Origin: an uncultured Candidatus Saccharibacteria bacterium | Lineage (GTDB): Bacteria; Patescibacteriota; Minisyncoccia; Phycocordibacterales; JACOZG01 | NCBI GenBank assembly: GCA_964399075.1 | Contig: CAYNPK010000001.1 | Coordinates: 160,961-224,960, forward strand | Direction: 5' to 3' | DNA length: 64,000 nucleotides | Shown here: positions 1,482 through 61,202 of the stretch, piece by piece | Numbering within the stretch: the first letter of the stretch is position 1 | Layout of the letters: each line of letters begins with the position of its first letter | Program-made: the position numbers and the translations under genes | The notes under the pieces: model-generated | Databases searched by the model: none | The model's input: the letters and a program-made list of their open reading frames with translations, nothing else | Told to the model about the DNA's origin: nothing

Positions 1482-2276
1482 CTAACTCCCAAAGGTCATA
1501 AAATTGGAACTTTCATATTTTCTAGTTGCGCGGTTAAATATATTGATTGAAATAATAAACCAAAATATTGCAAGAACGCCAACCAACAAAAGTTTTCCTA
1601 GAGAAATATCCCTAACTATTTCAACTGGTAAAGCCCCAACCAAAAGTGACGGAATGGCGAATGTAAAAATAAATCTCATCACTCCCTGGAAAGCACCGCC
1701 ATGGAATAGCGAGGGAGTTAAAAATAACTCAAAAAGACTTCCTGTTACAGAATTAGCGTCGGTGAAGAAAAAACTCGTTGAATAAATTGCTATTGCTGCC
1801 GACAAAAACACAATCGTGGAAACAAGAATCAGTAATGCTATCAGAAGAATCTGATAAATAGTTGCATGAATAAGAAAAGCATAAATTCCCAAACAGACAA
1901 GTCCAAAAACGATATCGCCAAGAGCCGAAACACCAAACGACGACGTAGCAATTCTGACGAGTAGATTTTTTGGCGAAAGCATAAAGCGATCGAATACCCC
2001 GATTGCAACATGATCGGCAAGTTTTCTGATTCCCGCTCCTACTGAAAATACAATGCCGAAACACAGAGCAACGAAGCCTTGCAAGCCAATAATATCAGCA
2101 ACAGTCCAACCGCCAATAACGCCAACAGATTTCACAAAAAATCCCCACAAAATTAGAAAAGCTGCATTGTTGATACTCATTCCAACAATGTTCATTAGAA
2201 AACTGGTGCGAAGTTCCGCACTACTTTGGATATTCTTTTTTATTGCGTATAAGGCGAAATATAATTCTTTCATCAT
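1482..2276 (-). CDS. ABC-2 family transporter permease
   Basis: Polytopic membrane protein (~6 TM) directly downstream of an ABC ATPase and a paralogous permease on the same strand. Confidence 0.55.
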   Translation of the reverse strand: MMKELYFALYAIKKNIQSSAELRTSFLMNIVGMSINNAAFLILWGFFVKSVGVIGGWTVADIIGLQGFVALCFGIVFSVGAGIRKLADHVAIGVFDRFMLSPKNLLVRIATSSFGVSALGDIVFGLVCLGIYAFLIHATIYQILLIALLILVSTIVFLSAAIAIYSTSFFFTDANSVTGSLFELFLTPSLFHGGAFQGVMRFIFTFAIPSLLVGALPVEIVRDISLGKLLLVGVLAIFWFIISINIFNRATRKYESSNFMTFGS

Positions 2277-2280
2277 AAAA

Positions 2281-3081
2281 TTATCCTCCGTTTACTGAGA
2301 CTTTTTGTTTTGCTTTTTCAAACATAAAATAAACGACCAATCCAAGTAAGACAACCCAAAACAATTGGATACCAACAAGTTGATACCAGTTTGTTTGCCA
2401 AGTTTCGTAAACTGTGTGCGTTATAAACTGCGAAGCACCGAAAGGACTCCACAAAGCAATCTTAAACATAAATGCTGGAAACAGAGCAACAGGGAGATAC
2501 GATCCACCAAGAATCATGATGGCCTTATCGACAATCCAAAAAACTGGATTGATGTCCTCTATCCAAAAAGACAAAAGACCAACAACTGTATATAAAAACA
2601 AGGAAAGAAATATCCCACAAATGAAAGCCAAAATGAATGTTGGGATAAAAAGGCCAATCATCATCGTTGATGGAAAACCAATAATAAAAAACAGCGCGGC
2701 TACAGCCAATAATGTTATGACAGCAAAAGAGTATAGACCAGAACCGATCTGCCACCATATTCGATACGATAGATAAGAAATTGGCTTACTAAACAACACT
2801 TCAACATTTCCAGTTTGAATATCTCTCATGATTTCCCTAGAAATGTCACGCAATCTAAATACCGAAAATGAGAAATAGAAAAAAATACTCCACGCGGCAA
2901 AAAGAAAAGTCGTGTTATTTATGACACCATCATTTAATTGAAAAACATGCCAATATAAAATTAGCAGTATTCCACATCGCGCGATGACACCAACGGTATC
3001 CACAACAAGTCTACCGGGATATTGAATCCGATCCTTAATGAGCGTCTTTAGTATCTTAGTTGCTAGTCGAATCTCTTTCAT
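2281..3081 (-). CDS. ABC-2 family transporter permease
   Basis: Polytopic membrane protein; overlaps the upstream ATPase gene stop, suggesting an operon. Confidence 0.55.
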   Translation of the reverse strand: MKEIRLATKILKTLIKDRIQYPGRLVVDTVGVIARCGILLILYWHVFQLNDGVINNTTFLFAAWSIFFYFSFSVFRLRDISREIMRDIQTGNVEVLFSKPISYLSYRIWWQIGSGLYSFAVITLLAVAALFFIIGFPSTMMIGLFIPTFILAFICGIFLSLFLYTVVGLLSFWIEDINPVFWIVDKAIMILGGSYLPVALFPAFMFKIALWSPFGASQFITHTVYETWQTNWYQLVGIQLFWVVLLGLVVYFMFEKAKQKVSVNGG

Positions 3082-4054
3082 AAATATGCCTAATTACTGC
3101 TTCGAGGCTAGCGTTATACACATCAATGTCTTCGACTTCAAACAGGTCAAGCAATTTTTTTAAAGATTCCTGAACAGTGATTTTGTTAATATCAACAACG
3201 ACAGTAATTTTATTTTTGTCTTGTGAAAAATAACGCATGCCTTCTGGGAGTTCCGGAAAATTATTAAACTTGCTTAGCGCGATAAGATCGATATGTTTTT
3301 CATAAACAAAAGTCTTTGCCAAATCTTGCGTAGGCAAATCTCTTATCACCACCCCGTGATTGATAATTATTGTCCTGTCGCAAAGAGATTCGATGTCGCC
3401 GACATCGTGAGAAGTTAAGAAAATTGTCGTATTTTCTTCCTTGTTTATTTTGAGCAACAAATCGCGAAGCAACTTCTTTGCCACGACATCAAGCCCAATT
3501 GTTGGTTCATCGAGAAGGATAATTTTTGGTTTATGAATTAAAGAAGCAGCAACTTCTGCTCGCATACGTTGACCAAGTGAGAGCTTACGTACCGGCTGAG
3601 TGATAAATGGCCCGAGGTCAAAAAGGCTAACAAGTTCAGTAATTCTCTTCTTGATTTCTTTTTCAGGCAAATCATACATTACACCAAAGAATTCGAGTGA
3701 ATCTGTTATTGGTAAATTTGGCAGAAGTTGCGAACGCTGACCAAAAACTGTGCCAATTTGATAAGCAAGCTTCTTTCTATCTTTTGTTGGATCAAAACCA
3801 AGAATATTTACTTTCCCCGAAGTTGGAAAAAGTATACCAGTGAGCATTTTGATTGTGGTAGATTTACCTGCCCCATTAGGACCAATGAACGCTATGCGTT
3901 CACCATGTTTGACCGAAAAAGAAATATCATTAACCGCTACGATTTCTTTAGTTTCAGGCGAGAGTAAATTTTTCAACCAACTCGAAGACGCGTTTCTTGT
4001 GGGGAAAGAAAACTTCTTTGTTAGGTTTGATACTGTAATAGAAACCGAGGACAT
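3056..4054 (-). CDS. ABC transporter ATP-binding protein
   Basis: Walker A GPNGAGKST, ABC signature LSLGQRMR, Walker B ILLDEPTIGLD. Confidence 0.9.
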   Translation of the reverse strand: MSSVSITVSNLTKKFSFPTRNASSSWLKNLLSPETKEIVAVNDISFSVKHGERIAFIGPNGAGKSTTIKMLTGILFPTSGKVNILGFDPTKDRKKLAYQIGTVFGQRSQLLPNLPITDSLEFFGVMYDLPEKEIKKRITELVSLFDLGPFITQPVRKLSLGQRMRAEVAASLIHKPKIILLDEPTIGLDVVAKKLLRDLLLKINKEENTTIFLTSHDVGDIESLCDRTIIINHGVVIRDLPTQDLAKTFVYEKHIDLIALSKFNNFPELPEGMRYFSQDKNKITVVVDINKITVQESLKKLLDLFEVEDIDVYNASLEAVIRHIYERDSTSN

Positions 4055-11148: not shown

Positions 11149-12669
11149 ATGAAGACAAACACAAAAACCAAAACTAAAACACCAACAAAGTTAAACCGCC
11201 CGCCGGTGGTTGTCATCATGGGACACATCGACCACGGCAAGTCGACTTTGCTTGATTACATTCGTCACACTAATCTAACGGCCAAAGAAGTCGGTGGCAT
11301 CACTCAAGCGGTCGGCGCTTATGAGGCTGGGGGTATCACCTTCATTGACACTCCGGGTCATGAGGCCTTCAGTCAAATGCGAGAATCTGGTGCCTGCTTA
11401 GCTGATATTACCATTTTAATTATTTCAGCCGAGGATGGCGTTAAGCCACAAACGCTTGAGGCCTTGAAAATAATTAAGGCGTTTAACTTACCCTACATTG
11501 TGGTGATTAATAAAATTGATAAACCTAACGCCAACGCGGAACGAGTACGCCAACAGCTGGCAGAACACGATGTCTTAGTCGAGGATTACGGTGGCAAAAT
11601 TCCGGTTCAGGAAGTCTCCGCCCAAACCGGCCAAGGTGTGCCAGAACTCTTGGAAATTCTGCTCCTCATGGCCGAGATGGAAGAACTCTCTGGCGACGCC
11701 AACAAATTAGGAACCGGTTTCGTTCTGGAATCCAGCATCGATAGCAAGATTGGCATTTCCGCAACTTTAATTATTAAAGACGGCAGACTGCGATCTGGTG
11801 ACTTCATTATTATCAACGGCGAGGTTTCTAAAATAAAAATCTTGCGCGACAGCGCTGGAAAAGCCACTAAAGAGTTAGGTCCGTCGCAACCGGCGCTAGT
11901 CACCGGCTTCAGCAATATTCCGCCAGCTGGAATAACTTTCATTGCCTTCTCCAACAAACAAGAGGCCGAAGAATTTGTCTCTAAGTTAAATCACAAAGAG
12001 GTTACGAACGAGTCATCTCCACCCAAACCAGAACCGGTTGCCGGAAAGATAGAGATACCGCTCATTATTAAAGCCGATGTCGCTGGCGCGATTGAAGCGC
12101 TCAAAAAAGAAATTAATAAACTCTCTAACGATGAGCTAACTTGGAAAATTTGCCAATCCGGGTTGGGGCCGATAAGCGAGAACGACGTTAAATTAGCCAG
12201 CGGATCCGAGCAAGCGATTATTCTTGGCTTCAACGTCAAGATTGATAAAACCGTTCAAGACTTAGCTGATCGTTCGGGAATAGTAATAAAAACTTTTGCT
12301 ATTATCTACAAACTATCCGAATGGTTAATCGAGGAAGCGACGCGTCAGACACCGAAGGTAGAAGTAGAACAAATGATCGGCCAGGCGAAAATTTTAAAAG
12401 TCTTTAGTGCCGGACGAGGCAAGTCTTCCGCCTCCAATAAACAAGTGATCGGTGGCTTGGTAACAGAAGGCAGTTTGGTTGTCGGCAAGAATTGCAAAAT
12501 TCTTAGACGGAAAGCCGAGATCGGTCGCGGCAAAATAGTGGAATTGCAACGCCAGAAATTAGCGACGAAAGAAGTGGCCAAAGACAGCCAATTCGGCGCC
12601 TTGGTAGAAACCAAAACAGCAATAGTCCCGGGCGATTATTTAGAGGTCTTTGATCTGGTTAATAAATAA
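11149..12669 (+). CDS. infB: translation initiation factor IF-2 (short form)
   Basis: GTPase G1 GHIDHGKST, DTPGHEAF, NKID; followed by rbfA as in the canonical operon. Confidence 0.9.
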   Translation: MKTNTKTKTKTPTKLNRPPVVVIMGHIDHGKSTLLDYIRHTNLTAKEVGGITQAVGAYEAGGITFIDTPGHEAFSQMRESGACLADITILIISAEDGVKPQTLEALKIIKAFNLPYIVVINKIDKPNANAERVRQQLAEHDVLVEDYGGKIPVQEVSAQTGQGVPELLEILLLMAEMEELSGDANKLGTGFVLESSIDSKIGISATLIIKDGRLRSGDFIIINGEVSKIKILRDSAGKATKELGPSQPALVTGFSNIPPAGITFIAFSNKQEAEEFVSKLNHKEVTNESSPPKPEPVAGKIEIPLIIKADVAGAIEALKKEINKLSNDELTWKICQSGLGPISENDVKLASGSEQAIILGFNVKIDKTVQDLADRSGIVIKTFAIIYKLSEWLIEEATRQTPKVEVEQMIGQAKILKVFSAGRGKSSASNKQVIGGLVTEGSLVVGKNCKILRRKAEIGRGKIVELQRQKLATKEVAKDSQFGALVETKTAIVPGDYLEVFDLVNK

Positions 12670-16910: not shown

Positions 16911-16995
16911 AGCCCGGGTGGCGGAACTGGTATACGCGCACGACTTAAAATCGTGTCCCTCACGGGATGTGGGTTCGATTCCCACCCCGGGCACA
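16911..16995 (+). tRNA. tRNA-Leu (TAA), long variable arm
   Basis: GCCCGGG acceptor, anticodon loop CTTAAAA, 13-nt variable arm, GGTTCGATTCC T-arm. Confidence 0.85.
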
Positions 16996-17010
16996 AAATC
17001 CAACCACACA

Positions 17011-18051
17011 ATGAAGCAATTCAAGTTCAGAGAAATCGGAGAAGATGAAAATTTTGACCTGAACAATTTTTGTAATAATGTTCCGTTCACGCAAGCGAAT
17101 TTTTATGGTAATTGGCAAAAGAGTCTAGGTAGAAGCGTAAGAAGATTCTTGATAGATAACAACAATAAAACAGTCGCCTATTTCCAATTGATTAAATATC
17201 CGCTTCTACTTAACAAAAGCTACCTGTACATCCCTTATGGCCCGGTAATAAAAAACTTTAAAGAATTGCCAAAAGATTTTTTTGCTAACCTCAAACAGGA
17301 ATTAAAACGAATTGCCAAAGCAGAGAACGCGGTTTTTGTTCGGCTTGATTTTACTCCATCGGTTCCAAACGACACTCTCGCAAAATTTTTTACCAAAGCT
17401 CCGCTCTATACTTACCACTCGGCATATTTCCAACCCCGCGCCGAGTGGTTTCTTGGTTTAGGAAAACCGAAAGAAGAACTATTGATGGATATGCATACGG
17501 ATAATCGCTACTCAATTCGTCTGTCAGAAAAAAAACAAATAACAACAGAAATAATCACCAAAGACTTTGAAAAATATTTTGATGTTTTTTACGAACTAAT
17601 GACAGAAACGGCGAAAAGAAATGGTTTTAGTCTTCATTCAAGAAATTATTATGAGCATATCTTTACTGATTTATCAAAAATAAGTGGCGCTCATTTAGTT
17701 ATTGCAAAATATGGCCAAAAAATTTTGGTTATCAAAATCATAATCGTCTTCGGAATTGTTTCGAATGATGTTTTCACTGGCTCGAGCAGTGAAGAGAGAA
17801 ACCGTCGACCTACTTATCTGACAATCTGGAGGGCTATATCTCACGCTAAGGAGTTAGGGTGCCAATTCTATAATTTCGGTGGGATATCCACTGAAAACAA
17901 AATTTACAAGGGCTGGGACGGCCTGACAGCCTTCAAGAAAAAATTTGGTGGCGAGGAAATAAAACATTCCGATTTTTTTGATCTAGTCACAAGTCCGTTT
18001 TGGTATTGGGTTTATAACTTCAGAAAACGCCTTAAGAAAATTAATTTATAA
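17011..18051 (+). CDS. FemAB-family peptidoglycan bridge-forming aminoacyl-tRNA transferase (FemX-like)
   Basis: YLYIPYGPV, FVRLDFTPSV and C-terminal YNFGGISTEN blocks parallel Weissella FemX; the track ORF start 16918 lies inside the tRNA, so the real start is taken as MKQFKF. Confidence 0.65.
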   Translation: MKQFKFREIGEDENFDLNNFCNNVPFTQANFYGNWQKSLGRSVRRFLIDNNNKTVAYFQLIKYPLLLNKSYLYIPYGPVIKNFKELPKDFFANLKQELKRIAKAENAVFVRLDFTPSVPNDTLAKFFTKAPLYTYHSAYFQPRAEWFLGLGKPKEELLMDMHTDNRYSIRLSEKKQITTEIITKDFEKYFDVFYELMTETAKRNGFSLHSRNYYEHIFTDLSKISGAHLVIAKYGQKILVIKIIIVFGIVSNDVFTGSSSEERNRRPTYLTIWRAISHAKELGCQFYNFGGISTENKIYKGWDGLTAFKKKFGGEEIKHSDFFDLVTSPFWYWVYNFRKRLKKINL

Positions 18052-20241: not shown

Positions 20242-21810
20242 TCATCTCTTACGATGAGTCTTGACCAAGTCATCCGTCATCTTTTGGAAGTGGAGGAGCT
20301 TAGCCGCTTGGGCAAAAAACTCCGCCAATCCATGCGGATCCCGCCGGAGCACCCACCAAAGCTGATGGGCAAAGAAGATATCCGGCCGGCGGAACAAGTT
20401 CCGCCACAGGAGCCGACCAGCCACGGCCAGATTCCGCCAACTTAGACGACTGGGCCGATGATAAGGACCACGTCTGGAAGCCAGAACCCGACAGCGTTGG
20501 TAGTAATTCCGAGAATGGAAGAGGTGGCGAAGCAATTCCACATAACCATCGATAAGGAATTGCTCCGGCAATTCGGTTTCGAAATTGAAACCGAGATGAT
20601 GGGTGTTGTTACCTCCCGATTCGCCCCGCAAGCGCCCGGCCCTCTTGAGCTCTTGGTAGAGAGGCGTCCCTCGAACGGCCGTCAAAAGTCCCGGCATTGG
20701 CATTACCACACCGGTCGTTAGCAGGAAGGCTGGCAAGACCTCAAAGACATTCGGTTTCTCACCATCGTGACCGATGATGATACCGCCACTAACCTCCAGC
20801 CCTGATTCCTGAATGATGGCGATCTTTTCCGCCAAACTCAAACTGCCTAGATTCTGACCCTTATCCATCGCCTTCAAGACATCTGGATCTGAGGATTCAA
20901 GACCGATAAAGATTTCAGCAAATCCCGCATCAACCATCAAGTCACGGATATCGGCGTGATTAAGCATGCCCAAGTCCGCGCTGGCTTCCGTAAACAGAGA
21001 GAAGGGGTAAGACCGCTCTCTCTGCCAATCGGCCAAGACTGGCAGAAAAACGCGTAGGGCCGACTTATTGCCAATGAAGTTATCATCAACAATGAAGACC
21101 GGACCACGCCAACCAGCTTGATAAAGAGCGTTGAACTCGCGGATCATCTGCTCTGGCGACTTAGCTCGAGTGCGACGACCATAGAGACCGGGAATGTCGC
21201 AGAAGTCGCAAGAGAAGGGACAGCCACGAGAGTATTGGACCGCCATGGAAGCGTAATCGTCCAAGTTGATCAAGTCCCAACGTGGCACCGGAGTCCTGTC
21301 GATCAGAGCCTTACCTTCACGAGTGAGGGAGGCGGGAGACATTCTCTGCACCCAAACACTCTCTTCGTAGATCGCCCGAGGTGTACCAGCGCGCCAGTCT
21401 TCCAGAAAAGGCCAAAGAGTGACTTCGGCTTCGCCAAGAACCAGATAGTCAGCCGGCACATCATCCGGATACAAAGTCGGATGCGGGCCACCACTGACAA
21501 CCTTCTTGCCACGCGAGTGAACTCTCTTGATTACTTCTCTAAGCGACTCACTCTGAACCAACATGGACGAAGTGAGAATCAGATCAGCTTCGTCAATCTG
21601 ATCATCGGTGAGAGATTGAACATTGAGATCAACCAACCCGGTAACCAGAAAATCGTCAGGCAACATGGCGGCCACAGTTAAGAGTCCGGTTGGAGGCATG
21701 GCAGACTTTCTGCCTGAGATTTCCACAGCTTTTTGGAAACCCCAAAAGGAAATCGGGAATTTGGGATAGACCAAGAGAACTTTCGTACGGATGCGTGTAT
21801 GAAGACGCAT
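20242..21810 (-). CDS. B12-binding-domain radical SAM protein with C-terminal DUF4070-like extension
   Basis: N-terminal cobalamin-binding region, radical SAM CPFSCDFC (CxxxCxxC) motif, 522 aa; GC ~52% versus ~40% in flanks. Confidence 0.8.
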   Translation of the reverse strand: MRLHTRIRTKVLLVYPKFPISFWGFQKAVEISGRKSAMPPTGLLTVAAMLPDDFLVTGLVDLNVQSLTDDQIDEADLILTSSMLVQSESLREVIKRVHSRGKKVVSGGPHPTLYPDDVPADYLVLGEAEVTLWPFLEDWRAGTPRAIYEESVWVQRMSPASLTREGKALIDRTPVPRWDLINLDDYASMAVQYSRGCPFSCDFCDIPGLYGRRTRAKSPEQMIREFNALYQAGWRGPVFIVDDNFIGNKSALRVFLPVLADWQRERSYPFSLFTEASADLGMLNHADIRDLMVDAGFAEIFIGLESSDPDVLKAMDKGQNLGSLSLAEKIAIIQESGLEVSGGIIIGHDGEKPNVFEVLPAFLLTTGVVMPMPGLLTAVRGTPLYQELKRAGRLRGESGGNNTHHLGFNFETELPEQFLIDGYVELLRHLFHSRNYYQRCRVLASRRGPYHRPSRLSWRNLAVAGRLLWRNLFRRPDIFFAHQLWWVLRRDPHGLAEFFAQAAKLLHFQKMTDDLVKTHRKR

Positions 21811-23539: not shown

Positions 23540-24283
23540 TTATGGAGACCGACGGTCTTCCACGACAACCAGAATCTCTCCGGAGTAGTGGTGATGGTGG
23601 TGATGTTCCACCACCAAGGGCTTGCGGTCTCGACACTGATCAGGTTGAGGGCGGAACGCGCCAACTTCTCTACCCGACCCAGCCAGCCCAGACTTTTCTG
23701 GGACAGTGTAAGCCGGTGGAGGCGCAGGCGGTCGCGAAACCGTCACCTCCGGCGAAGGAGGGGCCTCTGTCTCCTTCCGTTCTTTCGCTTCTTCAGGCGG
23801 AGGAGCAGAAGGAATCTTCGACACCTTGGGGGTATCATCTACCACTGCCGAAGACAAATCAGAAGCCGGTCGAGACTGGATGGCCTCCAGCACCTCCTGA
23901 TGACGCTCTTCAGTGGTAGCCTCCGAGGCCCTGTAACTGGCCTGCAGATTCCCCACCCCCTTCAAAATGTCTCCATTCTGGGAACATCCCTGAATGTGGT
24001 GAATCACCAAGAACAGAAACAACATTCCGAAGAGAGCAATGGTACCCTTGAGGATACGCTCGAGGCCGGACGGATGATTGCGGATGGCATCGGCGACAGC
24101 GGGGCGAGAGCTATCCGTCTGACCTTGCTGAACAGCGTTGGTCAAGCGGGTCATATTCTCACTTAGGTCGGTGAGTAGCGGGACCACCACACCAGCCACC
24201 GCCCGACCAACACTTTCGGCGGTCAAGGCCGGCTGAGTCGGTGGATCGGGAAGAGTTCGACGGGTGATTACTTTCTTGGCCAT
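23540..24283 (-). CDS. hypothetical single-pass membrane protein with Pro-rich linker and HHHHHH tract
   Basis: Longest ORF in a GC-rich stretch; start placed at the second ATG preceded by GGAAAGGAGG; TM IALFGMLFLFLVI; C-terminal VVEHHHHHHYSGE; competing plus-strand ORFs lack signals. Confidence 0.45.
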   Translation of the reverse strand: MAKKVITRRTLPDPPTQPALTAESVGRAVAGVVVPLLTDLSENMTRLTNAVQQGQTDSSRPAVADAIRNHPSGLERILKGTIALFGMLFLFLVIHHIQGCSQNGDILKGVGNLQASYRASEATTEERHQEVLEAIQSRPASDLSSAVVDDTPKVSKIPSAPPPEEAKERKETEAPPSPEVTVSRPPAPPPAYTVPEKSGLAGSGREVGAFRPQPDQCRDRKPLVVEHHHHHHYSGEILVVVEDRRSP

Positions 24284-24371
24284 GATTGGCCTCCTTTCCG
24301 GCTTTTTAGCCATATGGAATTGGAAACGAACATCATTACACCAAACCTATAGCTAGCACGAGGTCTTTAAG

Positions 24372-24497: not shown

Positions 24498-25352
24498 ATG
24501 AAACCGGTACACAAACTTGGTCTGATCGTAGCGATCCTGGTAATCGCTGTGACAATTCTGTTGGTAACGTCCGACAATTCTTCTTTCAAGACGGTCGGAT
24601 ACACCCTCCTAACAATCGAGGGTCTCCTGGCATTGATCCTCATTGTCCCTTCCATCTATCGGGCTATTGGCAAGGCGACAGTAGCGAGTGGGGAACGATG
24701 GAAAAACCTGAAAAAGACAGTGAACCCACTCATGATCCTGGTGGCCGGATTGATGATCTTCGCGATCATCCGACGATTGCTGTGGCCCAAATTCTCCTTC
24801 ATGGAATCCTTCGCCCAGGAGAACTGGATGGTGGGCATGATTGTGGCCGGTATTATCTTGGCTGCAATCCTGATCTCTCAACAAGAGAGTGAGGCCAGCA
24901 AGAAGATCGGCAAGGTGCTAGCCTGGTCCCTGGTCATAATCAGCCTGGTGACCATTGGACCAATAGTCGGCAAGCGTCTCGGGATTAACGACTGGCTGGC
25001 CGAACGCCCCCGTCCAGCGACAACACAGGCGCTAGCGGAGGGAAGTCGGATCAGAACGAGTAGTGCTCCAACCTGGACTGAAGACGTCATTGCTCCAGTG
25101 GGAGAATGGTCAAACTGGCACCAGCTCCCATCGGGCGTTGATGGTGTCTACCAGGTTCTAAATCGGGGTAGTGTCATGTTCCAACTTTCCGACAAAACTA
25201 CTTTTTCAGTCAGGCCGAAGGAAATTGTCGATTGGGGCGATACGGATGTGCCTTTGTCTCTGAAAAAGACAAGGTATTGCGTAACGTCGCTGGATGAAAG
25301 GCCAGTGATCGTACGCTTCACCTACCAGAGGAAGTCCGGGGGCATGTGGTAA
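24498..25352 (+). CDS. hypothetical polytopic membrane protein with ~110-aa C-terminal soluble domain
   Basis: AAGGAGG RBS 7 nt before ATG; 4-5 predicted TM helices. Confidence 0.55.
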   Translation: MKPVHKLGLIVAILVIAVTILLVTSDNSSFKTVGYTLLTIEGLLALILIVPSIYRAIGKATVASGERWKNLKKTVNPLMILVAGLMIFAIIRRLLWPKFSFMESFAQENWMVGMIVAGIILAAILISQQESEASKKIGKVLAWSLVIISLVTIGPIVGKRLGINDWLAERPRPATTQALAEGSRIRTSSAPTWTEDVIAPVGEWSNWHQLPSGVDGVYQVLNRGSVMFQLSDKTTFSVRPKEIVDWGDTDVPLSLKKTRYCVTSLDERPVIVRFTYQRKSGGMW

Positions 25353-25440: not shown

Positions 25441-25722
25441 CTACCGACAACCAATCGTCCCGCAAATGAGGTGCATAATTCCGAAAGCGGAAACCATAAT
25501 GAACATTCCCACCACTCCCCAGAGCACATGCTGACGGCCAATGGTTCTGGCGTCCTCGCTAGCATCACCTTTAATAATCTCGTAGACGCCGTAGAGGAAG
25601 AAAAGCAGAGCAATACCAAAGAAGAGCTTAATTAAGGGATTAAAGATGTTGACTGTAATCTTATCAATCAGATCAATCGCGTCAGTAGCCGCTTCAGCCG
25701 TGGAAGTGAAGGAGGTAAACAT
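25441..25722 (-). CDS. TrbC/VirB2-like (T4SS-pilin-like) small two-helix membrane protein, paralog 5
   Basis: Two hydrophobic helices separated by a charged loop (GDASEDARTIGRQ), shared with four upstream paralogs. Confidence 0.55.
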   Translation of the reverse strand: MFTSFTSTAEAATDAIDLIDKITVNIFNPLIKLFFGIALLFFLYGVYEIIKGDASEDARTIGRQHVLWGVVGMFIMVSAFGIMHLICGTIGCR

Positions 25723-25730
25723 TCGTTATT

Positions 25731-26108
25731 TTAACGAACAGTAGGTAAAGGTATCTGAGGTACAGTAATGTTTGTTGATCCAAACCGCGCAGTTCTACCA
25801 AGAACAGAGACCAAGCCAACAATAGAAACCATCACGAAGATACCAATCAAGCCATAAATAATCGCATCCCGACCAGCCTTACGCTTATCCTCATCACCAC
25901 CGGCAGTAATAAACTTAAAAGCGCCATAAATAACATAGAGGATAGCAATAGCGATCAGAAATGGAACAATGTAAGCATTTATGAAATTTACTATCTCAAA
26001 AAGAGACTGACCCAAACCCTTACCTTCAAAACTTGCTTGCGCAGATGCCATAATTGGCAAAACCATTACCGCACCAGCAACTAAAACTAATTTAATTTTT
26101 GTTAACAT
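25731..26108 (-). CDS. TrbC/VirB2-like small membrane protein, paralog 4
   Basis: Signal peptide, YGAFKFITAGGDEDKRKAGRDAIIYGLIGIFVMVS block. Confidence 0.6.
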   Translation of the reverse strand: MLTKIKLVLVAGAVMVLPIMASAQASFEGKGLGQSLFEIVNFINAYIVPFLIAIAILYVIYGAFKFITAGGDEDKRKAGRDAIIYGLIGIFVMVSIVGLVSVLGRTARFGSTNITVPQIPLPTVR

Positions 26109-26135
26109 AAACTTAATAATTAATCTATTAATAAA

Positions 26136-26564
26136 CTAACTACCTCTATTAAACGTGGGAACTGGCGGTGGTGTTGTCTCAAAATCAACAGTCCTAATAA
26201 GGATACCGACAAATCCCCAAACTGAAATCATGACAAAGAGGGCAATAATCCCGTAAACCATCATGTCTCGACCGGCTTGCCGCTCTTTCTCATCATCTCC
26301 CTTCCTGATATATTTTAGCATCCCGGCAAGTAAATACACAATAGCCAGGGCGATGAACAAGTAGACAAGCGGTTGAGCTACTTTATCTAACCCACAATTA
26401 ATAAAGTTGGAGAAATTAGCTCCGCAGTTGGCAGAAGGATTTGTTACCGTTTCAATATCGTCTCCATAAGAACCGCTTTGAGCTAATCCAACCGCAGGTA
26501 AGATTAATAGACTAAGAATCAGAATCGGGAGTAAAAATTTTGAGTACTTAAGAAGACTGTTCAT
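26136..26564 (-). CDS. TrbC/VirB2-like small membrane protein, paralog 3
   Basis: Signal peptide, LKYIRKGDDEKERQAGRDMMVYGIIALFVMIS block. Confidence 0.6.
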   Translation of the reverse strand: MNSLLKYSKFLLPILILSLLILPAVGLAQSGSYGDDIETVTNPSANCGANFSNFINCGLDKVAQPLVYLFIALAIVYLLAGMLKYIRKGDDEKERQAGRDMMVYGIIALFVMISVWGFVGILIRTVDFETTPPPVPTFNRGS

Positions 26565-26587
26565 TGTTGATGTTTATAGAAATAATT

Positions 26588-26917
26588 TTAAGAACCTGAT
26601 AATTGATCAATCGTTCCTTCTATCATCGTCTGGATCACGAAAGCGCCCAAGACAATGGCCGCGCCAACAATAGTCCAAAGGAAGGCTTGCTTGGCCTTGG
26701 TCAAATCCTCCGGCTTGCCTCGCGCCATGACGAAGAGCAAACCAACATAGACAATCATGAGAGCAATAATGGGAAGACCAATATTGACAACAATTTCTAA
26801 GATTTTTGTAATTAATTCCGGAATGGAATTAATGCTACCAAGAGGATTAAAAGAGGGAGTTGAGAAACTGCCAGCCCCATCTTGAGCAAATACTTTAACT
26901 ATTAAAAAATCTAACAT
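26588..26917 (-). CDS. TrbC/VirB2-like small membrane protein, paralog 2
   Basis: Same two-helix + charged-loop architecture (ARGKPEDLTKAKQAFLW). Confidence 0.55.
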   Translation of the reverse strand: MLDFLIVKVFAQDGAGSFSTPSFNPLGSINSIPELITKILEIVVNIGLPIIALMIVYVGLLFVMARGKPEDLTKAKQAFLWTIVGAAIVLGAFVIQTMIEGTIDQLSGS

Positions 26918-26924
26918 AAAATAT

Positions 26925-27344
26925 TTAATAATATTTATAGTATATCATAGACAATGGCGGTAAATAAGTATCATCATCAGTTAGAGACTTCATAATTGTT
27001 TCCACAATCAACCAAGCCGCCAGAGTAACAATTAGACCAATTATGGCCATACTGATCATGTGCTTCGCCTCGGAGCGTTTGCCATCGTTAGTGGCATACA
27101 CCACCATTTGGATGCCAGCGTAAGTGATGGTTAGCACCGCCGCGGCCGTGGCTAAATAAACCAGCCAAAGAAAGATGTTTCTGCCCAATTGTAATAATTG
27201 AGGAAACTTGCAACTATCAAAACCCTCACAAGGCACTAGACTCTCTGGCGGTGGCGAACCTTGAGCATAAATTAGAGGAATGGCGATGAAGATCCACAAC
27301 AGCACACTGCTGGCGATAATTATTAGACGGCGATTTAACTTCAT
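26925..27344 (-). CDS. TrbC/VirB2-like small membrane protein, paralog 1
   Basis: Signal peptide; YATNDGKRSEAKHMISMAIIGLIVTLAAW block. Confidence 0.55.
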   Translation of the reverse strand: MKLNRRLIIIASSVLLWIFIAIPLIYAQGSPPPESLVPCEGFDSCKFPQLLQLGRNIFLWLVYLATAAAVLTITYAGIQMVVYATNDGKRSEAKHMISMAIIGLIVTLAAWLIVETIMKSLTDDDTYLPPLSMIYYKYY

Positions 27345-27362: not shown

Positions 27363-28685
27363 CTAGATGGGATTAATTAATAATTCTAATTCTCTTTGGG
27401 CCTGATTCAAGGCCTCGACGAGTGGCACTCGGCCGATCTGTGAGCGCTCAAATAAAGTGCGGAAGACAGTGTTGGTTCCTGAAGGATTAGGATCCGGCCA
27501 AGATCGAGCCAGCAAAGCCGATTGGTAGAAGACAGTCTGGATAGGATCAGCTGAAGGCGGTGAACTCAAGAGATCCAAACGAGCTGGCGGTAAGTCTGCT
27601 AAATCAGCCAAGGAGCGATTGAAGGAACTTGAACTTAATGAGGAAGCAGCCCTAGCAGCGCCGGTAATTTTAACCTGATTGCTGACAGTTTTCTTCACCA
27701 AGGCCAGGCCAGTAAAACGGCCCAGAGTTAAACTATTAGACCCGGAGCGTTGAGGGATCAGGGTTACGTCAATATTAAGCTGAGGATTCTGTTCTCTTAA
27801 GCGCGAATATTCGCTAGCGTAACCGAAATACATTGCCAATTGACCACGGAGGAAGGCCTCCCTCGCCTCCGGCTGAGCGCTATTCCACGAGTAGAGAGCG
27901 TTAGCCGGATCGGAGAAACGGCCGAAGAAAGCCAGAGCCTCCGAGGCCGGCAATTGGCTATAACCGAAGCTGTCATTAAGAGTGGCGCGCCAACCTTGCT
28001 CACTTGAGACGACAATCGGATTGCCGGCCTGCAAAATCAACATGGTTAAAATGTCTTTGGCATGAGTGATGTTACTAAATTGACCCATGGCAACGGCAGC
28101 TTGAGAAATATTGTCTCGCAAATCAGCCGAGACCAGCGCCTTAACCGCCACGGGGAAATCATCCCAAGTTTGAGGTGGTCGGATTAGTTTAGCGTTAGTG
28201 ATTAAATTACGATTGTAATAAAGCACTAGAGGGTCTACATAGAGCGGTAAGGCCAGAAAGCCATCTGGTTGTAAAAATAATTCCGCTCCGCGAATAAAAT
28301 TATCCTGAAATTGGCGGAGAGAATAATTGCTGTAAGGAATAGTGAGTAATTTGTCAGCCTGATTGCTTAGAGTAATTTGACTGGCCATTATCAAATCGGG
28401 ACCCTCGCCTCTCGCTAGAGCATCAACTAAGACTGATTCAAAAGTAGCTGGATTCTGATAAGAATAAAGGAGGGTAAAGTCTTCTTCGTGAACTTTATTG
28501 AAGGATTCGACGAAGGCACCCATCTCTGTCTCGGGAATAGTCCCCCAGAGAGTAATCTGTCCAGCCTGACCGCCGGGCTGGGCCCTAAACCCGGGCAAGA
28601 TACCAGCAAAGATTAAAGTGCCAATAATCAAAAAGAAGCCGAAGATGATTAGTAAAATTGTTTGGAAAATATTGGGACTTTTCAT
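27363..28685 (-). CDS. extracellular solute-binding protein (ABC family-1-like), membrane anchored
   Basis: N-terminal TM anchor; ITLWGT and sugar-SBP-like pattern; no permease or ATPase partners adjacent. Confidence 0.55.
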   Translation of the reverse strand: MKSPNIFQTILLIIFGFFLIIGTLIFAGILPGFRAQPGGQAGQITLWGTIPETEMGAFVESFNKVHEEDFTLLYSYQNPATFESVLVDALARGEGPDLIMASQITLSNQADKLLTIPYSNYSLRQFQDNFIRGAELFLQPDGFLALPLYVDPLVLYYNRNLITNAKLIRPPQTWDDFPVAVKALVSADLRDNISQAAVAMGQFSNITHAKDILTMLILQAGNPIVVSSEQGWRATLNDSFGYSQLPASEALAFFGRFSDPANALYSWNSAQPEAREAFLRGQLAMYFGYASEYSRLREQNPQLNIDVTLIPQRSGSNSLTLGRFTGLALVKKTVSNQVKITGAARAASSLSSSSFNRSLADLADLPPARLDLLSSPPSADPIQTVFYQSALLARSWPDPNPSGTNTVFRTLFERSQIGRVPLVEALNQAQRELELLINPI

Positions 28686-28698
28686 TTCATCATTTCAT

Positions 28699-29250
28699 TT
28701 ATTTAACAAATAGCAAACCATAATGATTGGCGCCGGCCGGGAAGTCCCCGGCCGGCTTGAGGCCGGCTTGGGCACAAATCTTGCTTGCCTCCTCTGGCGA
28801 GACCACGCGATCGGCCGAGGGACCAAGCCCGCCGAAAGAGCTAGACCACTCCACAATCGCCAAGTGACCGCCAGCCTTAAGCACTCGTTTGGCTTCTAGA
28901 ATTAAACTATAACGCTGATCTGACTGGAAGAGCGTATTGGCCAACAACACCAGATCAACAATACCGTCAGCTAGTTTAGAACCGCCACGCTTCTCGATAT
29001 CACCCCAGACGACTTCGATATTCCTTACCCCCAGATGTTTAACTTCTTTCTCCAGTCGCTGGAGCAACTCCTTCTGAACATCAACTGCATAAACCTTATT
29101 GAGACCGGGCGCGTTGGAAGTCGGATTAATTTCTGCCAAACGTCGAGCCATTGCCAAAGAATAATGACCACTGCCGGCGCCGAAATCGGCCACGCACATC
29201 CCCTCTCTAAGATTAAGATATGGAATGATCGCTTGCGGATCAGAAAACAT
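28699..29250 (-). CDS. class I SAM-dependent methyltransferase
   Basis: Motif I VADFGAGSGHYSL, post-I DVQ, motif II GGHLAIVEW. Confidence 0.75.
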   Translation of the reverse strand: MFSDPQAIIPYLNLREGMCVADFGAGSGHYSLAMARRLAEINPTSNAPGLNKVYAVDVQKELLQRLEKEVKHLGVRNIEVVWGDIEKRGGSKLADGIVDLVLLANTLFQSDQRYSLILEAKRVLKAGGHLAIVEWSSSFGGLGPSADRVVSPEEASKICAQAGLKPAGDFPAGANHYGLLFVK

Positions 29251-36470: not shown

Positions 36471-37481
36471 ATGAACAAAGAAAAACCGCCAGTAGTAGCA
36501 TATTTAGCGATCTTGGGAAGATTTACTTTACTTCCAGGAATTCAACAGATCAAAATTGGGGAATTCGGTATTGATTGCTTAATACGATATTCCTTTGCAG
36601 AACATATCATAGATGAAAAGAAAAATATAAAAGTTCCTACTGAAGACTGTACGATCTTTTCAATTGAACATAAAAATTACAAAAGAGAGGATTTGAACAA
36701 GTCACAAAAAGTCGATGAAGTCCTTGAAAAATCACTCATAGCAATTAGCGAACTGTCACTTTGGTCAAAATCGAAAGAACAAGTCGGTAAAATTTCTAGT
36801 TATATAAGACAAGTAGGTAGATCAGACGTTAAATATTTTTTTGTTGAGATATCAGATGACTCATTAATTGAGTGGAAAAATGGATCCTATTGGCAAAGTC
36901 TTAAGGGGTTCCAAATTTTAAGCGGTTTTCTAAGTAACATGGTTGTAACAAATGGACCATCGCAAAATCCAACACCATCAGCCACGAGAAGAATCCTTAG
37001 CTGTTTAGACTTAATTAATCTTGGTTTTTATTCAGATGCCTTCATTACTGCTTTTGCATTATTAGATGATTTAACACAAGAAGTCTTGAAGGCAGGTTTT
37101 GAAAAAAAGAAATTATCGTTAAAAGAACAAAAAAATATTCTTAGGGGTATTACAGAAGATAGGTTAGCAAACTTCTTAACCAGTATATTAAAATTATGCG
37201 ATTGGGTGAGTCTTGAAAAAGAAAACGAAAAACTATTTAAAAAGCTGAAAAAGATTAATACAAAAAGAAATGACATAATGCATGGCTCAGTAAGATTAAC
37301 TAGAAATACTGCAATTGAATACATTGATATAATATTAGAAATCCTCTCTTTTTTAAGGCAAAATCCATTTGATTACACAATTGAAGAATTCCCAACTTTG
37401 AAACTCATTGAACCAGAGTATCTGAAACTATCAAATCTCGAAAAAGGCGAATCACCCGCAAACATGACCGATTATACTTAG
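36471..37481 (+). CDS. hypothetical protein with C-terminal HEPN-like Rx4HG motif
   Basis: AT-rich (~30% GC) orphan gene; KRNDIMHGS near the C-terminus fits the HEPN Rx4-6H signature; rest unassigned. Confidence 0.35.
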   Translation: MNKEKPPVVAYLAILGRFTLLPGIQQIKIGEFGIDCLIRYSFAEHIIDEKKNIKVPTEDCTIFSIEHKNYKREDLNKSQKVDEVLEKSLIAISELSLWSKSKEQVGKISSYIRQVGRSDVKYFFVEISDDSLIEWKNGSYWQSLKGFQILSGFLSNMVVTNGPSQNPTPSATRRILSCLDLINLGFYSDAFITAFALLDDLTQEVLKAGFEKKKLSLKEQKNILRGITEDRLANFLTSILKLCDWVSLEKENEKLFKKLKKINTKRNDIMHGSVRLTRNTAIEYIDIILEILSFLRQNPFDYTIEEFPTLKLIEPEYLKLSNLEKGESPANMTDYT

Positions 37482-43563: not shown

Positions 43564-43567
43564 AAAA

Positions 43568-43639
43568 TGACCCTACCGGGAATCGAACCCGGATTACCGG
43601 CTTGAAAAGCCGATGTCCTAACCGTTAGACGATAGGGCC
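43568..43639 (-). tRNA. tRNA-Glu (TTC)
   Basis: Minus-strand GGCCCTA acceptor, anticodon loop TTTTCAA, GGGTTCGATTCCCGG T-arm. Confidence 0.8.
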
Positions 43640-43717
43640 AAAATACTCTAGGACTGCTTTAGTTTATAGCTTCTAGACCATTTTGGCAAATCAACGCAAA
43701 AATGCTAGCATATTTCT

Positions 43718-43807
43718 GGAGGGTTGGCAGAGTGGTCTAACGCGCCGCACTCGAAATGCGGTTGGGGAGCAATCCCCTCACAGGTTCAAATCCTGTACCC
43801 TCCGCCA
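43718..43807 (+). tRNA. tRNA-Ser (CGA), long variable arm, CCA encoded
   Basis: GGAGGGT acceptor, anticodon loop CTCGAAA, ~20-nt variable arm, terminal GCCA. Confidence 0.85.
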
Positions 43808-43811
43808 ATTT

Positions 43812-44630
43812 TTATAATGGACTTCTAATATTCTTCAACTTGGGATTTGTCACTTGTGTATAAATTTGAGTTGTACGAATGTTTGAGTGTCCAAGTAATT
43901 CTTGCACATAACGAACGTCAGTTCCGTTTTCCAATAAATGTGTCGCAAACGAATGCCTAAGTGAATGAAAAGTTGCAGGTTTACTGATCTTTGCTTTGGC
44001 TAAACTTTTTCTAAATACTTTTTGCAAAGATGTTGTTGTCAATTTCCCACCACGATTTGAGCCAAAGAGAAACTCATTCGTATTTTTACCAGCCACAACG
44101 TTTCGCAAAGCATCTTGCAACTTTTCAGGCAAGACGCTAATTCTGTCTTTTTTACCTTTTGCCCCTTTGATATGTACCACGAGCTCATCGATATCCAAAT
44201 CAGCAACCTTGAGATCGACAACTTCGCTCACGCGCAAACCACAAGCATAACCAAGTGAAATCATCAGTCGATATTTTGTATTATCCGTTGTTTCAATAAT
44301 TTTCTCAATTTCCGCATGGGATAACACTATCGGTAACTTCTTACTCCTTTTAGCAAACTTCAAATCGATTTTTTGAGGATCTTTCAAAACTTCTGCATAC
44401 AAAAACTTAATTGCATTTAGGGCGAGGTTGATTGTTTGTGGAGACTGATTGCGTCTGTGTTTATCAAGCAAAAAATCCTCAAGCGCTTTTTGCTTATTTG
44501 TGATTCCCCTTTCTTTCGAAAAATTGATATACTCTTTTATGTAGAGCAAATAGGCTTTACATGTTTTAGGCGAATAGTTACGTAAACGCAACGCACGATC
44601 AGTTTTATCTAAAACATTTTCCATATTCAA
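43812..44630 (-). CDS. tyrosine site-specific recombinase (phage-integrase / Xer-like)
   Basis: Catalytic box HSLRHSFATHLLENGTDVRYVQELLGHSNIRTTQIYTQV; its stop is 5 nt from the tRNA-Ser 3' end. Confidence 0.85.
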   Translation of the reverse strand: MNMENVLDKTDRALRLRNYSPKTCKAYLLYIKEYINFSKERGITNKQKALEDFLLDKHRRNQSPQTINLALNAIKFLYAEVLKDPQKIDLKFAKRSKKLPIVLSHAEIEKIIETTDNTKYRLMISLGYACGLRVSEVVDLKVADLDIDELVVHIKGAKGKKDRISVLPEKLQDALRNVVAGKNTNEFLFGSNRGGKLTTTSLQKVFRKSLAKAKISKPATFHSLRHSFATHLLENGTDVRYVQELLGHSNIRTTQIYTQVTNPKLKNIRSPL

Positions 44631-52248: not shown

Positions 52249-52254
52249 AATATA

Positions 52255-52480
52255 AAAATTGCCCTTACAAAATAATAAATCAAGGTTGACGATTTTGTAA
52301 GGGCGATCTACGATCGCGGTACCACCTTACTTCATTGGATTTTTATCCAATCTCTTACCAACTTCCAGTGGTTTGAAGCTGTGACGGGCTTATCCCGGAA
52401 GATTCTACTCTCTCAAAAGTGAGATTTCTTTCCTCGGCTCGACCGTGTCAACGGTTTCATTGCCTTTAATTAAATAATAG
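52255..52480 (-). promoter_or_regulatory. T-box riboswitch leader upstream of aspS
   Basis: Minus strand carries AAGGTGGTACCGCG (T-box sequence) followed by a 12-bp terminator stem GCCCTTACAAAAT/ATTTTGTAAGGGC plus AAUUUUUAU, ending ~12 nt before the aspS ATG; GAGAGAG and a candidate GAU specifier upstream. Confidence 0.7.
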
Positions 52481-52607
52481 CAAAATCGTTAATATAACGC
52501 AAATCCTATACACACAAAGATGATTATGCTATAGTACTTCTGGAACTTCAAGATAGTCTTGAGGTATGTTCTTTTAAAATCCGATCCTGAAAGGAGGAAC
52601 AGCACGT

Positions 52608-52886
52608 ATGCGCACAGCAGAAGAAGTCATGATGCGCTGCAAGCTCATCCTCGATCAGTCGGACATCGTCCTTCTGGTCGATAAGAGTAGCAGCCCAACG
52701 GCGGCCTATGACATGGTTATAAACACAACTCACGACGACGAGACCGCGAAGGCGGCTCGCTGGCTCGGTGTATTGAAAAGGGATTACCCCGATCGGTACA
52801 CTGAAATCACCCACAGCACTCTCAGCCACGTTCAGAGGAACACGGCGAAGAAAGGAGAACGGAATGAAAACGACGTATGCAGTTGA
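52608..52886 (+). CDS. hypothetical small protein (92 aa), first gene of the GC-rich island operon
   Basis: Strong AAAGGAGG RBS; overlaps the start of the AsnRS-like gene; ~55% GC. Confidence 0.45.
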   Translation: MRTAEEVMMRCKLILDQSDIVLLVDKSSSPTAAYDMVINTTHDDETAKAARWLGVLKRDYPDRYTEITHSTLSHVQRNTAKKGERNENDVCS

Positions 52887-54186: not shown

Positions 54187-54238
54187 ATACCCCATATATC
54201 AAGCCAATCACGGCAAGGCACACTGAAAGGAGCCCATT

Positions 54239-61114: not shown

Positions 61115-61202
61115 TTGCTAGCATAGTAACGAAAATATTGAGGTTCTGCAACAAAAAATCAAAAATCCCCCACCATTTAGGTGAGAGATTTCTGATTTTA
61201 AT

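Follow-up and report, generated by a model that had tools for sequence, protein, structure and literature searches.

The 64-kb window analysed in this study (the whole stretch of 64,000 nucleotides from contig CAYNPK010000001.1) carries, at positions 25441-27344, an array of five consecutive minus-strand genes for small pilin-like membrane proteins of the kind represented by VirB2 and TrbC. The open reading frames (ORFs) have the coordinates given in the original prediction, a note made from the letters of this DNA alone, and are separated by gaps of 7-27 nt. In coordinate order from 25441 the encoded proteins are 93, 125, 142, 109 and 139 amino acids (aa) long. We number the genes as pilins 1 to 5 from the opposite end, each representing one class, and list them here with their scores for the Pfam family PF18895 (T4SS_pilin):

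26925-27344, minus strand: pilin-like gene 1, class 1, 139 aa, PF18895 44.8 bits
26588-26917, minus strand: pilin-like gene 2, class 2, 109 aa, PF18895 42.0 bits
26136-26564, minus strand: pilin-like gene 3, class 3, 142 aa, PF18895 37.7 bits
25731-26108, minus strand: pilin-like gene 4, class 4, 125 aa, PF18895 37.2 bits
25441-25722, minus strand: pilin-like gene 5, class 5, 93 aa, PF18895 25.3 bits

The PF18895 gathering cut-off of 26.6 bits is passed by four of the five proteins, and the 93-aa protein, which falls just short of it, can be linked to PF18895 by its positional orthologs and by family profiles A2/A3. With E-values ranging from 1e-11 to 2e-5, these matches are not due to chance. 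Such scores, together with the exact coordinates and the alignment described below, bear out the proposal that the five genes are clear paralogs. The Pfam check that had been suggested for them came out differently for its other family, PF04956 (TrbC; cut-off 27.9 bits), which stayed below cut-off for all five: the best score was 24.9 bits for the 109-aa protein (E = 2e-5), two others had 13.7 and 12.7 bits, and for the last two there was no match at E <= 1. Many homologues in other genomes nevertheless have precomputed PF04956 matches, and the relation to TrbC is thus best described as one at the level of the superfamily. Hence, these profile comparisons place the five proteins in PF18895, with a superfamily-level relation to VirB2/TrbC and not with membership in PF04956.

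Profiles built from larger sets of sequences give the same family a wide distribution. A 33-sequence profile of the array genes and their relatives retrieves 102 proteins, nearly all of which match PF18895 and many of which also match PF04956, and those that have been named by NCBI (in Vogelbacteria and Paceibacterota) are called "TrbC/VirB2 family protein". When a 93-sequence profile was compared with 1.84 billion cluster representatives, 119,584 were matched at E <= 1e-3, and even at E <= 1e-10 there were 64,425, which makes this a very large family. Among sequences in the PDB, the best natural match of the same profile is VirB2 of the Agrobacterium tumefaciens T-pilus (8cue/8fai, E = 0.007), and the alignment with 8cue extends over the full length, starting where the signal peptide ends and taking in both helices. 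Next come a second VirB2 structure (E = 0.063) and TraM of pKM101 (E = 0.46). A search with the single 139-aa sequence against 5.8 billion proteins returned only the query, this protein being too short for a database of that size. The identification of a TrbC/VirB2-like two-helix array in a genome of the candidate phyla radiation type is therefore upheld by the PF18895 scores of four proteins, by the NCBI names, by the VirB2 profile match and by the arrays already described in the literature.

It might be argued that these are generic proteins with two transmembrane (TM) segments, such as holin-like proteins or members of a domain of unknown function, that score on PF18895 through compositional bias without being homologous to it. 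The proteins are indeed short and hydrophobic, the same scans also yield many weak matches to membrane families that are unrelated, structure searches are non-specific (fold searches with the monomer model did not discriminate), and the top PDB profile match is a designed TM protein. However, PF18895 E-values reach 1e-11, while the next families have E >= 1e-2 with the exception of the related TrbC and DUF6112; the VirB2 match is consistent and covers the full length; no holins are matched in PHROG; and the family has its 64,425 representatives at the stricter threshold as well as a conserved core-chromosome context. We therefore regard non-homology as highly improbable.

Three more specific assignments were rejected. 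None of the five sequences contains the class III motif (G|F/M-x-x-x-E) of type IV pilins, and a back-translated GFTLIE pattern has a single match in the window, inside HisRS, which is at chance level. A phage holin identity is countered by the lack of any PHROG match at E <= 0.01 for all five proteins and by the housekeeping context. Finally, the family of the Mycoplasma integrative and conjugative element (ICE) protein Mbov_0395 (NF045849) is the best NCBIfam match for every array protein, with E-values from 6.5e-8 to 6e-3, yet scores of 16.3-32.2 bits all lie below its cut-off of 40 bits. That family shares with the array a VirB2-like two-helix protein in a wall-less monoderm, but it is ICE-borne and single-copy, whereas the window array belongs to the chromosomal core.

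Despite their low overall similarity (17-28% global identity to the reference sequence in a five-way alignment; 44 of 115 residues identical in the highest-scoring local pair, the 142-aa and 125-aa proteins), the five proteins share a core that opens with an amphipathic lead-in and continues with two hydrophobic helices separated by a charged loop. The alignment and the hydrophobic segments place two long hydrophobic helices around the charged loop in all five, the loops being AGGDEDKRKAGRD, KGDDEKERQAGRD, GDASEDARTIGRQ, ARGKPEDLTKAKQ and ATNDGKRSEAKH. The examples quoted earlier for the short charged loop between the two hydrophobic helices, GGDEDKRKAGRD and GDDEKERQAGRD, were both found, and this part of the description applies to the entire array. 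The accompanying statement that each protein has an N-terminal signal or TM segment is true of the 139-, 142- and 125-aa proteins and needs correcting for the other two, which lack a proper signal peptide. With regard to VirB2-type pilin architecture, then, the helix-loop-helix core is present in five of five proteins, whereas three of five appear to have, at the N-terminus, a canonical signal peptide whose cleavage site is of the AxA/AQ type.

Pilin 1 has a predicted signal peptide ending ..LIYAQG|SP, followed by a conserved "LVPC..C" cysteine motif and then the two-helix hairpin; its cysteine loop reads LVPCEGFDSC in the window and is conserved throughout class 1. The predicted signal peptide of pilin 3 ends ..VGLAQS|GS and precedes a cysteine-containing spacer and the loop KGDDEKERQAGRD, and that of pilin 4 ends ..IMASAQA|SF, with AGGDEDKRKAGRD as the loop. 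For pilin 4, an AlphaFold model has helices at residues 3-26, 32-68 and 73-111, with a confidence score (pLDDT) of about 90 in the hairpin core, and the predicted structure is that of a signal helix plus a helical hairpin. Pilin 2, the most TrbC-like of the five, has its signal peptide reduced to a stub, MLDFLIVKVFAQDG. Pilin 5 is without a signal peptide and ends in a cysteine-containing C-terminus, ICGTIGCR. Since the orthologs of pilins 2 and 5 repeat the stub and the absence, respectively, the signal-peptide pattern is a property of the classes and not an artefact of start-codon choice.

Tandem arrays of this kind are known from related bacteria. In a survey of 3,035 Patescibacteria genomes, Quinonero-Coronel et al. 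(PMC12102498) applied PF18895, PF04956 and CONJScan pilin profiles, and counted as an array at least two genes positive for a pilin hidden Markov model (HMM) that lie in tandem or one gene apart and have low identity. By this definition they catalogued 441 VirB2 arrays of 2-11 genes, with a mean identity of 25%, in 383 Patescibacteria assemblies; the window has five such genes in a row at 17-28% identity. VirB2-like pilins occur in 1,948 VirB4-positive assemblies but near virB4 in only 1,135 of them (PMC12102498). Of about 3,026 assemblies, 2,407 have a VirB4 that belongs to the patescibacterial clade, and its gene is usually near dnaA/dnaN in Paceibacteria. The array is thus a further instance of the kind already described, and the lack of adjacent machinery is within the described variation. 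The catalogued arrays, the SEML1_0006-0019 series of Southlakia epibionticum ML1 and the "Sec secreted array" of TM7x all resemble the window array in consisting of tandem small genes of the PF18895/PF04956 type that are divergent (about 25%) yet structurally uniform and reside on the chromosome of a monoderm host with a reduced genome. Unlike the Southlakia array, which belongs to a cluster encoding a type IV secretion system (T4SS), the array in the window forms the tail of an operon with genes for a methyltransferase and a solute-binding protein (SBP), usually beside gyrA. It differs from the published patescibacterial arrays more generally in that its genes are fixed positional orthologs across Paceibacteria, and in its linkage and fusions to the SBP.

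Comparison with classical pilins, namely VirB2 (8cue/8fai), TrbC of RP4, TraM of pKM101 and TraA of F, reveals two helices and a short charged loop in common and, in three of the five window proteins, an apparent signal peptide as well. The loop of the window family is about seven residues longer and of mixed acidic and basic character. Further differences from the classical proteins are that the single pilin is replaced by five paralogs, that two of these have no signal peptide, that the host is a monoderm and that no virB genes are adjacent. A non-conjugative parallel exists in archaea, where CedA1 of the Ced DNA-import system is a VirB2-like pilin serving chromosomally encoded, T4SS-related machinery in cells that have no outer membrane. 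In Ced loci, the VirB4-like CedB and the polytopic CedA adjoin the pilin.

The original prediction suggested that the diversity of the paralogs may reflect surface variation. On this view, which was raised also in PMC12102498, the array would be a cassette of interchangeable major pilins that match host strains or evade recognition, and several observations are in keeping with it. Identity within the array is low (17-28%), the number of array genes varies from 3 to 7 among relatives, and the VirB2 arrays of Anaplasma phagocytophilum and Bartonella, which likewise are tandem divergent virB2 copies in host-dependent bacteria, have been interpreted as a source of antigenic or host-range variation (as cited in PMC12102498). 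In contrast to those examples, however, the conserved order and orthology of the window genes favour fixed and distinct roles.

The evidence for orthology comes from comparing each window pilin with the arrays of related loci, here designated by L numbers. In Smith-Waterman comparisons with L004, every window pilin scores highest with the gene at the same position: these scores are 148, 236, 187, 180 and 230 for pilins 1 to 5, as opposed to 41-178 for paralogs of the same genome. The first array gene is the best match of class 1 in seven of seven other arrays compared. Class 2 matches the second array gene (in L004, the positional ortholog at 11757-12119), and classes 1 and 2 form one fused protein in L032. 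The middle genes of L004 and L032-L035 match classes 3 and 4, with the best matches of pilin 3 being third-position genes, and class 5 has its best match in the last gene of the same loci. The window pilins are thus closer to same-position genes in these five loci than to their own paralogs, with the reservation that pilin 3 ties with pilin 4 in some genomes. Traits specific to individual classes have also been kept, as exemplified by the cysteine loop of class 1 and the absence of a signal peptide in class 5, whose cysteine-containing C-terminus is found in the window, L004 and L032. Neither repeats nor recombination cassettes were seen, although no search was aimed at them.

Divergence between the orthologs is unexceptional. 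Window and L004 pilins 1 to 5 are 38.5%, 54.3%, 42.0%, 39.4% and 50.6% identical, a range of 38-54% that brackets the values for the neighbouring SBP (44%) and methyltransferase (52%) and that is not indicative of hypervariability; GyrA and ribosomal protein S1 are 69% and 68% identical, and downstream membrane and SPFH proteins 25-38%. Judging from these comparisons, the paralogs predate the divergence of the lineages and evolve at ordinary rates. Positional orthology combined with ordinary divergence points to five distinct roles and not to a fast-varying surface cassette, and the fixed gene order with one-to-one orthology implies that these roles are not interchangeable. The suggestion of surface variation is therefore not supported, given that positional orthologs exist, that class-specific features are conserved and that the pilins diverge no more than the adjacent SBP or methyltransferase, and we consider a variation cassette decidedly unlikely.

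The pilin genes do not stand alone. Upstream of pilin 1, and in the same direction, are two further genes, and a strong RNA hairpin follows pilin 5:

28699-29250, minus strand: class I S-adenosylmethionine-dependent methyltransferase, 183 aa, with Methyltransf_31/11/25 matches
27363-28685, minus strand: TM-anchored SBP resembling maltose-binding protein (MBP), 440 aa, PF13416 54.6 bits, PF01547 48.9 bits
25381-25414, unstranded: strong hairpin, likely a (bidirectional) terminator, RNA fold -28.3 kcal/mol, z = -7.9 relative to shuffled sequences

The SBP gene ends 18 nt upstream of pilin 1, the methyltransferase gene is 13 nt upstream of the SBP gene, and gyrA is next after a gap of 56 nt. The hairpin sits between the last pilin gene and a convergent gene at 24498-25352; a consensus scan for promoters and terminators, which gave matches at the frequency expected from shuffled sequences, did not list it. 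Given this spacing, the methyltransferase, the SBP and pilins 1-5 likely constitute one compact transcription unit that ends at the hairpin. An HMM built from the five array genes found no additional copy in any frame of the window. The product of the convergent plus-strand gene is 284 aa long, with a predicted set of five TM helices followed by a soluble domain at the C-terminus, and matches no Pfam family. It was rejected as a sixth pilin, having a weak NF045849 match (E = 0.01, probably reflecting hydrophobic bias) and no match to PF18895 or to the array HMM. Its counterpart position in L004 and L032-L036 is occupied by an unannotated minus-strand gene of 204-285 aa, and only 58 residues align between the window protein and the one in L004.

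The SBP has an uncleaved N-terminal TM anchor (segment at residues 3-34). Its AlphaFold model has a pLDDT of 95 and matches MBP and other sugar SBPs in Foldseek at E ~1e-21, a profile of the protein finds 4r9f in the PDB at E = 1.7e-21, and the invariant aromatic residues typical of sugar binders are retained. From its predicted fold, the protein is confidently modelled as a putative sugar binder of the MBP type, sharing its fold with family-1 MalE-like SBPs such as the mannooligosaccharide-binding 4r9f/4r9g and the trehalose/maltose-binding 1eu8. What sets it apart from SBPs of ABC importers is that it is TM-anchored, has no permease or ATPase nearby, and is linked genetically to a VirB2-like pilin, with which it forms a covalent fusion in two cases. 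No cognate permease (BPD_transp_1) or ABC ATPase is present in the window, where the sole ABC genes (1482-4054) are of the ABC-2 type, nor within 10 kb on either side in the eight Pfam-annotated related loci, a count that does not cover L004-L006.

The order methyltransferase, SBP, pilins is found in 10 of 10 loci (the window, L004, L005, L006 and L031-L036), and PF18895 genes follow the SBP in all 11 related loci examined. The arrays of nine of these loci are composed as follows:

L004: 5 pilin genes after the SBP
L005: 3 pilin genes after the SBP, one consisting of three fused pilin repeats and one with an extra C-terminal domain
L006: 6 pilin genes after the SBP
L031: SBP-pilin fusion and at least 1 further pilin gene (the contig ends)
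L032: 4 pilin genes after the SBP
L033: 6 array ORFs after the SBP, 4 with Pfam PF18895 matches
L034: 5 pilin genes after the SBP
L035: 5 pilin genes after the SBP
L036: 5 pilin genes after the SBP

Because most of these loci share the entire gyrA neighbourhood, synteny by itself is weak evidence of function. Two loci depart from this background. In L035, gyrA is separated from the methyltransferase by three inserted genes, yet methyltransferase, SBP and pilins are still contiguous. L037 (5213-11651) has the SBP, a pilin, the methyltransferase and six more pilins clustered beside SMC and not beside gyrA, in the order SBP, pilin, HTH_25-domain gene, methyltransferase, two small genes and six pilins; its SBP is 30% identical to that of the window (E = 4e-42) and its methyltransferase 33% (E = 2e-28). 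The module in L037 is relocated and rearranged, yet it has been kept together. Moreover, SBP and class-1 pilin are joined in single polypeptides in two independent homologues, P0005 (JGI, two member sequences) and P0010 (Logan, a contig in three samples). In both fusions the SBP is N-terminal and the pilin part begins at the mature "LVPC" motif, and pilin 1 matches their C-termini by BLASTP at 1e-16 and 5e-15, respectively. Relatives of the SBP outside Parcubacteria, including those in Levybacteria and Woesebacteria, have no pilin-like neighbours. Earlier, the SBP had been described as a lone neighbour of the array; a membrane-anchored SBP does adjoin it, but as a conserved and sometimes fused partner and not an incidental one.

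Other architectures occur in the same family. Class 1 is enlarged in relatives, reaching 386 aa in L034 and 192 aa in L035 and acquiring a C-terminal domain in L005 and the SBP in P0005/P0010. Many library proteins (P0225-P0373) are tandem fusions of pilin-like repeats, with up to 17 such stretches in a protein of 1,775 aa. On a smaller scale, L005 12240-13097 is a three-repeat pilin protein and L032 11332-12138 is a fusion of pilin 1 and pilin 2. The gyrA gene of the same Sungiibacteriota relative (L005 5579-9355) is also unusual, encoding 1,258 aa as compared to 829 aa in the window; the additional sequence, which interrupts the conserved N-terminal region, would be compatible with an intein.

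We find no mention of solute-binding or substrate-binding proteins in PMC12102498 or PMC10633639, and a literature search for a link between Parcubacteria pilins and SBPs returned nothing, although its coverage was incomplete and is no proof of novelty. Thus, neither the module of methyltransferase, SBP and pilins, nor the fusions of SBP and pilin, nor the positional orthology of the five classes appears to have been described in the searchable literature.

How might such a cassette operate? The five anciently diverged members of the VirB2/TrbC superfamily would insert into the cytoplasmic membrane as helix-loop-helix proteins. Three of them would enter through Sec by means of a signal peptide that is cleaved by signal peptidase, and the 109- and 93-aa proteins would probably insert as hairpins without cleavage; small two-helix proteins can insert via YidC. 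The pilins could then be extracted and assembled by a patescibacterial MPF-FATA-like machine of the VirB4/VirB6 type, presumably encoded elsewhere in the genome, into a surface filament or conduit at the site of contact with the host cell. Roles would be split among them, with, for example, one major subunit and several minor or adaptor subunits. Its cysteine loop and frequent extension by extracellular domains, the SBP among them, make pilin 1 a probable adaptor or minor subunit, and it may couple the SBP domain to the assembly as, for instance, a host-glycan adhesin or ligand sensor.

Family membership, the two-helix architecture, the compact operon, the conserved linkage, the fusions and the positional orthology are shown by the data above. 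We infer assembly by a T4SS, the formation of a filament, the part played by the SBP and any role of the methyltransferase, and we consider it reasonably probable that the array encodes subunits of a T4SS-assembled filament or conduit to which the SBP is attached via the class-1 pilin. The T4SS role is proposed by analogy with the pilin series inside the T4SS cluster of Southlakia epibionticum, which was found to be essential by transposon sequencing (Wang et al., PMC10633639; also PMC12857230). Two observations weigh against this interpretation. No T4SS gene is found within 10 kb on either side in 11 loci, and concatenated VirB2-like hairpins such as those in the fused proteins are hard to reconcile with a simple pilus-subunit role.

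The first of these observations would also fit a membrane complex that works independently of any T4SS, in which the pilin-derived proteins are the TM partner of the orphan SBP and form a novel uptake channel or a platform for ligand sensing and adhesion. An SBP without neighbouring permease or ATPase that is always linked to pilins, and twice fused to one, is what such a complex would lead us to expect; some 10 TM helices would be available from the five proteins together, and the two without a signal peptide resemble ordinary membrane subunits. There is, however, no precedent for SBP-dependent transport via VirB2-like proteins, and the cassette contains no energising ATPase. Homologous arrays in Saccharibacteria are inside the T4SS cluster and co-essential with it, and about 40% of patescibacterial pilin genes are known to be away from virB4 anyway (PMC12102498). 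On balance, we regard a T4SS-independent complex as rather unlikely. A related alternative is that the pilins of Paceibacteria are more than detached T4SS parts, and that methyltransferase, anchored SBP and five-class pilins make up a dedicated and vertically conserved module. The ligand-binding SBP domain would in this case be mounted, through fusion or non-covalently, on a specialised class-1 pilin, itself part of a heteromeric assembly in the form of a filament or membrane complex. We put this forward tentatively, as a possibility for which the odds are less than even. If true, it would represent an undescribed means by which ultra-small episymbionts recognise or capture glycans of the host surface or nutrients, and it might even operate without a T4SS.

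Patescibacteria account for much of the bacterial diversity that is still uncultivated, and little has been learned of their attachment to hosts or of how they feed on them. Their essential T4SS differs from other monoderm systems in a single feature, the VirB2-like pilins. The locus described here adds no new kind of element, but it does give testable leads for Paceibacteria, the largest class: five conserved and non-interchangeable pilin classes, a linked orphan protein of the sugar-binding type, and a methyltransferase that travels with them. If the pilin assembly does carry the SBP as its component for host recognition or ligand capture, a handle on host specificity follows, since the ligand could be identified with the expressed SBP.

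The chromosomal surroundings of the array are those of a core region. The window encodes GyrA, ribosomal protein S1, IF-2, BipA, LepA, ClpB, FtsA/FtsZ, MurJ, FemAB, HisRS, synthetases of the AspRS/AsnRS type and Pth, together with ten tRNAs and RNase P RNA, and the GC content near the array, 0.43-0.49, is unremarkable. The families of VirB4 (CagE_TrbE_VirB/AAA_10), VirB6 (TrbL), VirD4 and relaxases are absent from the window at Pfam sensitivity, in a scan of all ORFs of at least about 200 aa with unannotated ORFs rescanned at E <= 0.1; the earlier remark that VirB4, VirB6 and a coupling protein are missing from the vicinity thus extends to the full 64 kb. A mobile-element or island origin was rejected on the basis of the housekeeping neighbours, the conserved synteny and the ordinary GC content, and the window is ordinary core chromosome of a reduced-genome bacterium of the Paceibacteria/Parcubacteria type. 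Identical proteins in the same gene order are present in Logan assemblies of SRR11845627-29. The nearest loci are from a Ca. Paceibacterota metagenome-assembled genome (MAG; SBP 44% and GyrA 69% identical), a Ca. Sungiibacteriota MAG and Parcubacteria GW2011_GWA2_38_13b, and homologues of the SBP are labelled Vogelbacteria, Wolfebacteria or Paceibacterota. From these nearest relatives we infer that the host is a Patescibacterium of the class Paceibacteria (Parcubacteria), and the comparisons indicate that the cassette is a vertically inherited core feature of this group.

Several other features of the window deserve mention. Three class IIb aminoacyl-tRNA synthetase genes lie together at 50929-55546, where the GC content is 0.48-0.55 as compared to about 0.44 elsewhere. 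Two of these are paralogs of non-discriminating AspRS (50929-52248, minus strand, and 54239-55546, plus strand; NF003483 scores of 496 and 492 bits against a cut-off of 353), and between them is an AsnRS-like gene (52864-54186) whose 325 bits are below the AsnRS cut-off of 414. A tyrosine recombinase gene at 43567-44630, XerA/integron-integrase-like with 216 bits against a cut-off of 220, is flanked by tRNA-Glu and tRNA-Ser genes and may encode either the enzyme that resolves chromosome dimers or an integrase located at a tRNA site. The gene at 36471-37481 encodes a 336-aa protein with a sub-threshold match to HEPN RiboL-PSP (23.3 versus 28.4 bits); it falls where the GC content of the window is lowest (0.357 at 36-38 kb), and it could represent a small gene for defence or a toxin that has been acquired.

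Closer to the array, the minus-strand ORF at 23540-24313 would encode a proline-rich protein of 257 aa with a run of six histidines and no family match. Long opposite-strand ORFs overlap it and its counterpart in L004 has only 111 aa at 24% identity, and whether the ORF as called is real is uncertain. The FemAB-family ORF at 16912-18051, with its listed GTG start at 16918, overlaps a same-strand tRNA-Leu gene (16912-16994), and its true start must therefore lie further downstream. The match to RNase P RNA at 61200-61649 (minus strand) spans 450 nt compared to 367 positions in the model, which implies sizeable insertions relative to the bacterial type A consensus. Lastly, a B12-binding radical SAM protein with a DUF4070 domain, unexpected in a reduced genome, is encoded at 20242-21810 on the minus strand, in a stretch with a raised GC content of 0.51 that adjoins tRNA-Lys and tRNA-Leu genes.

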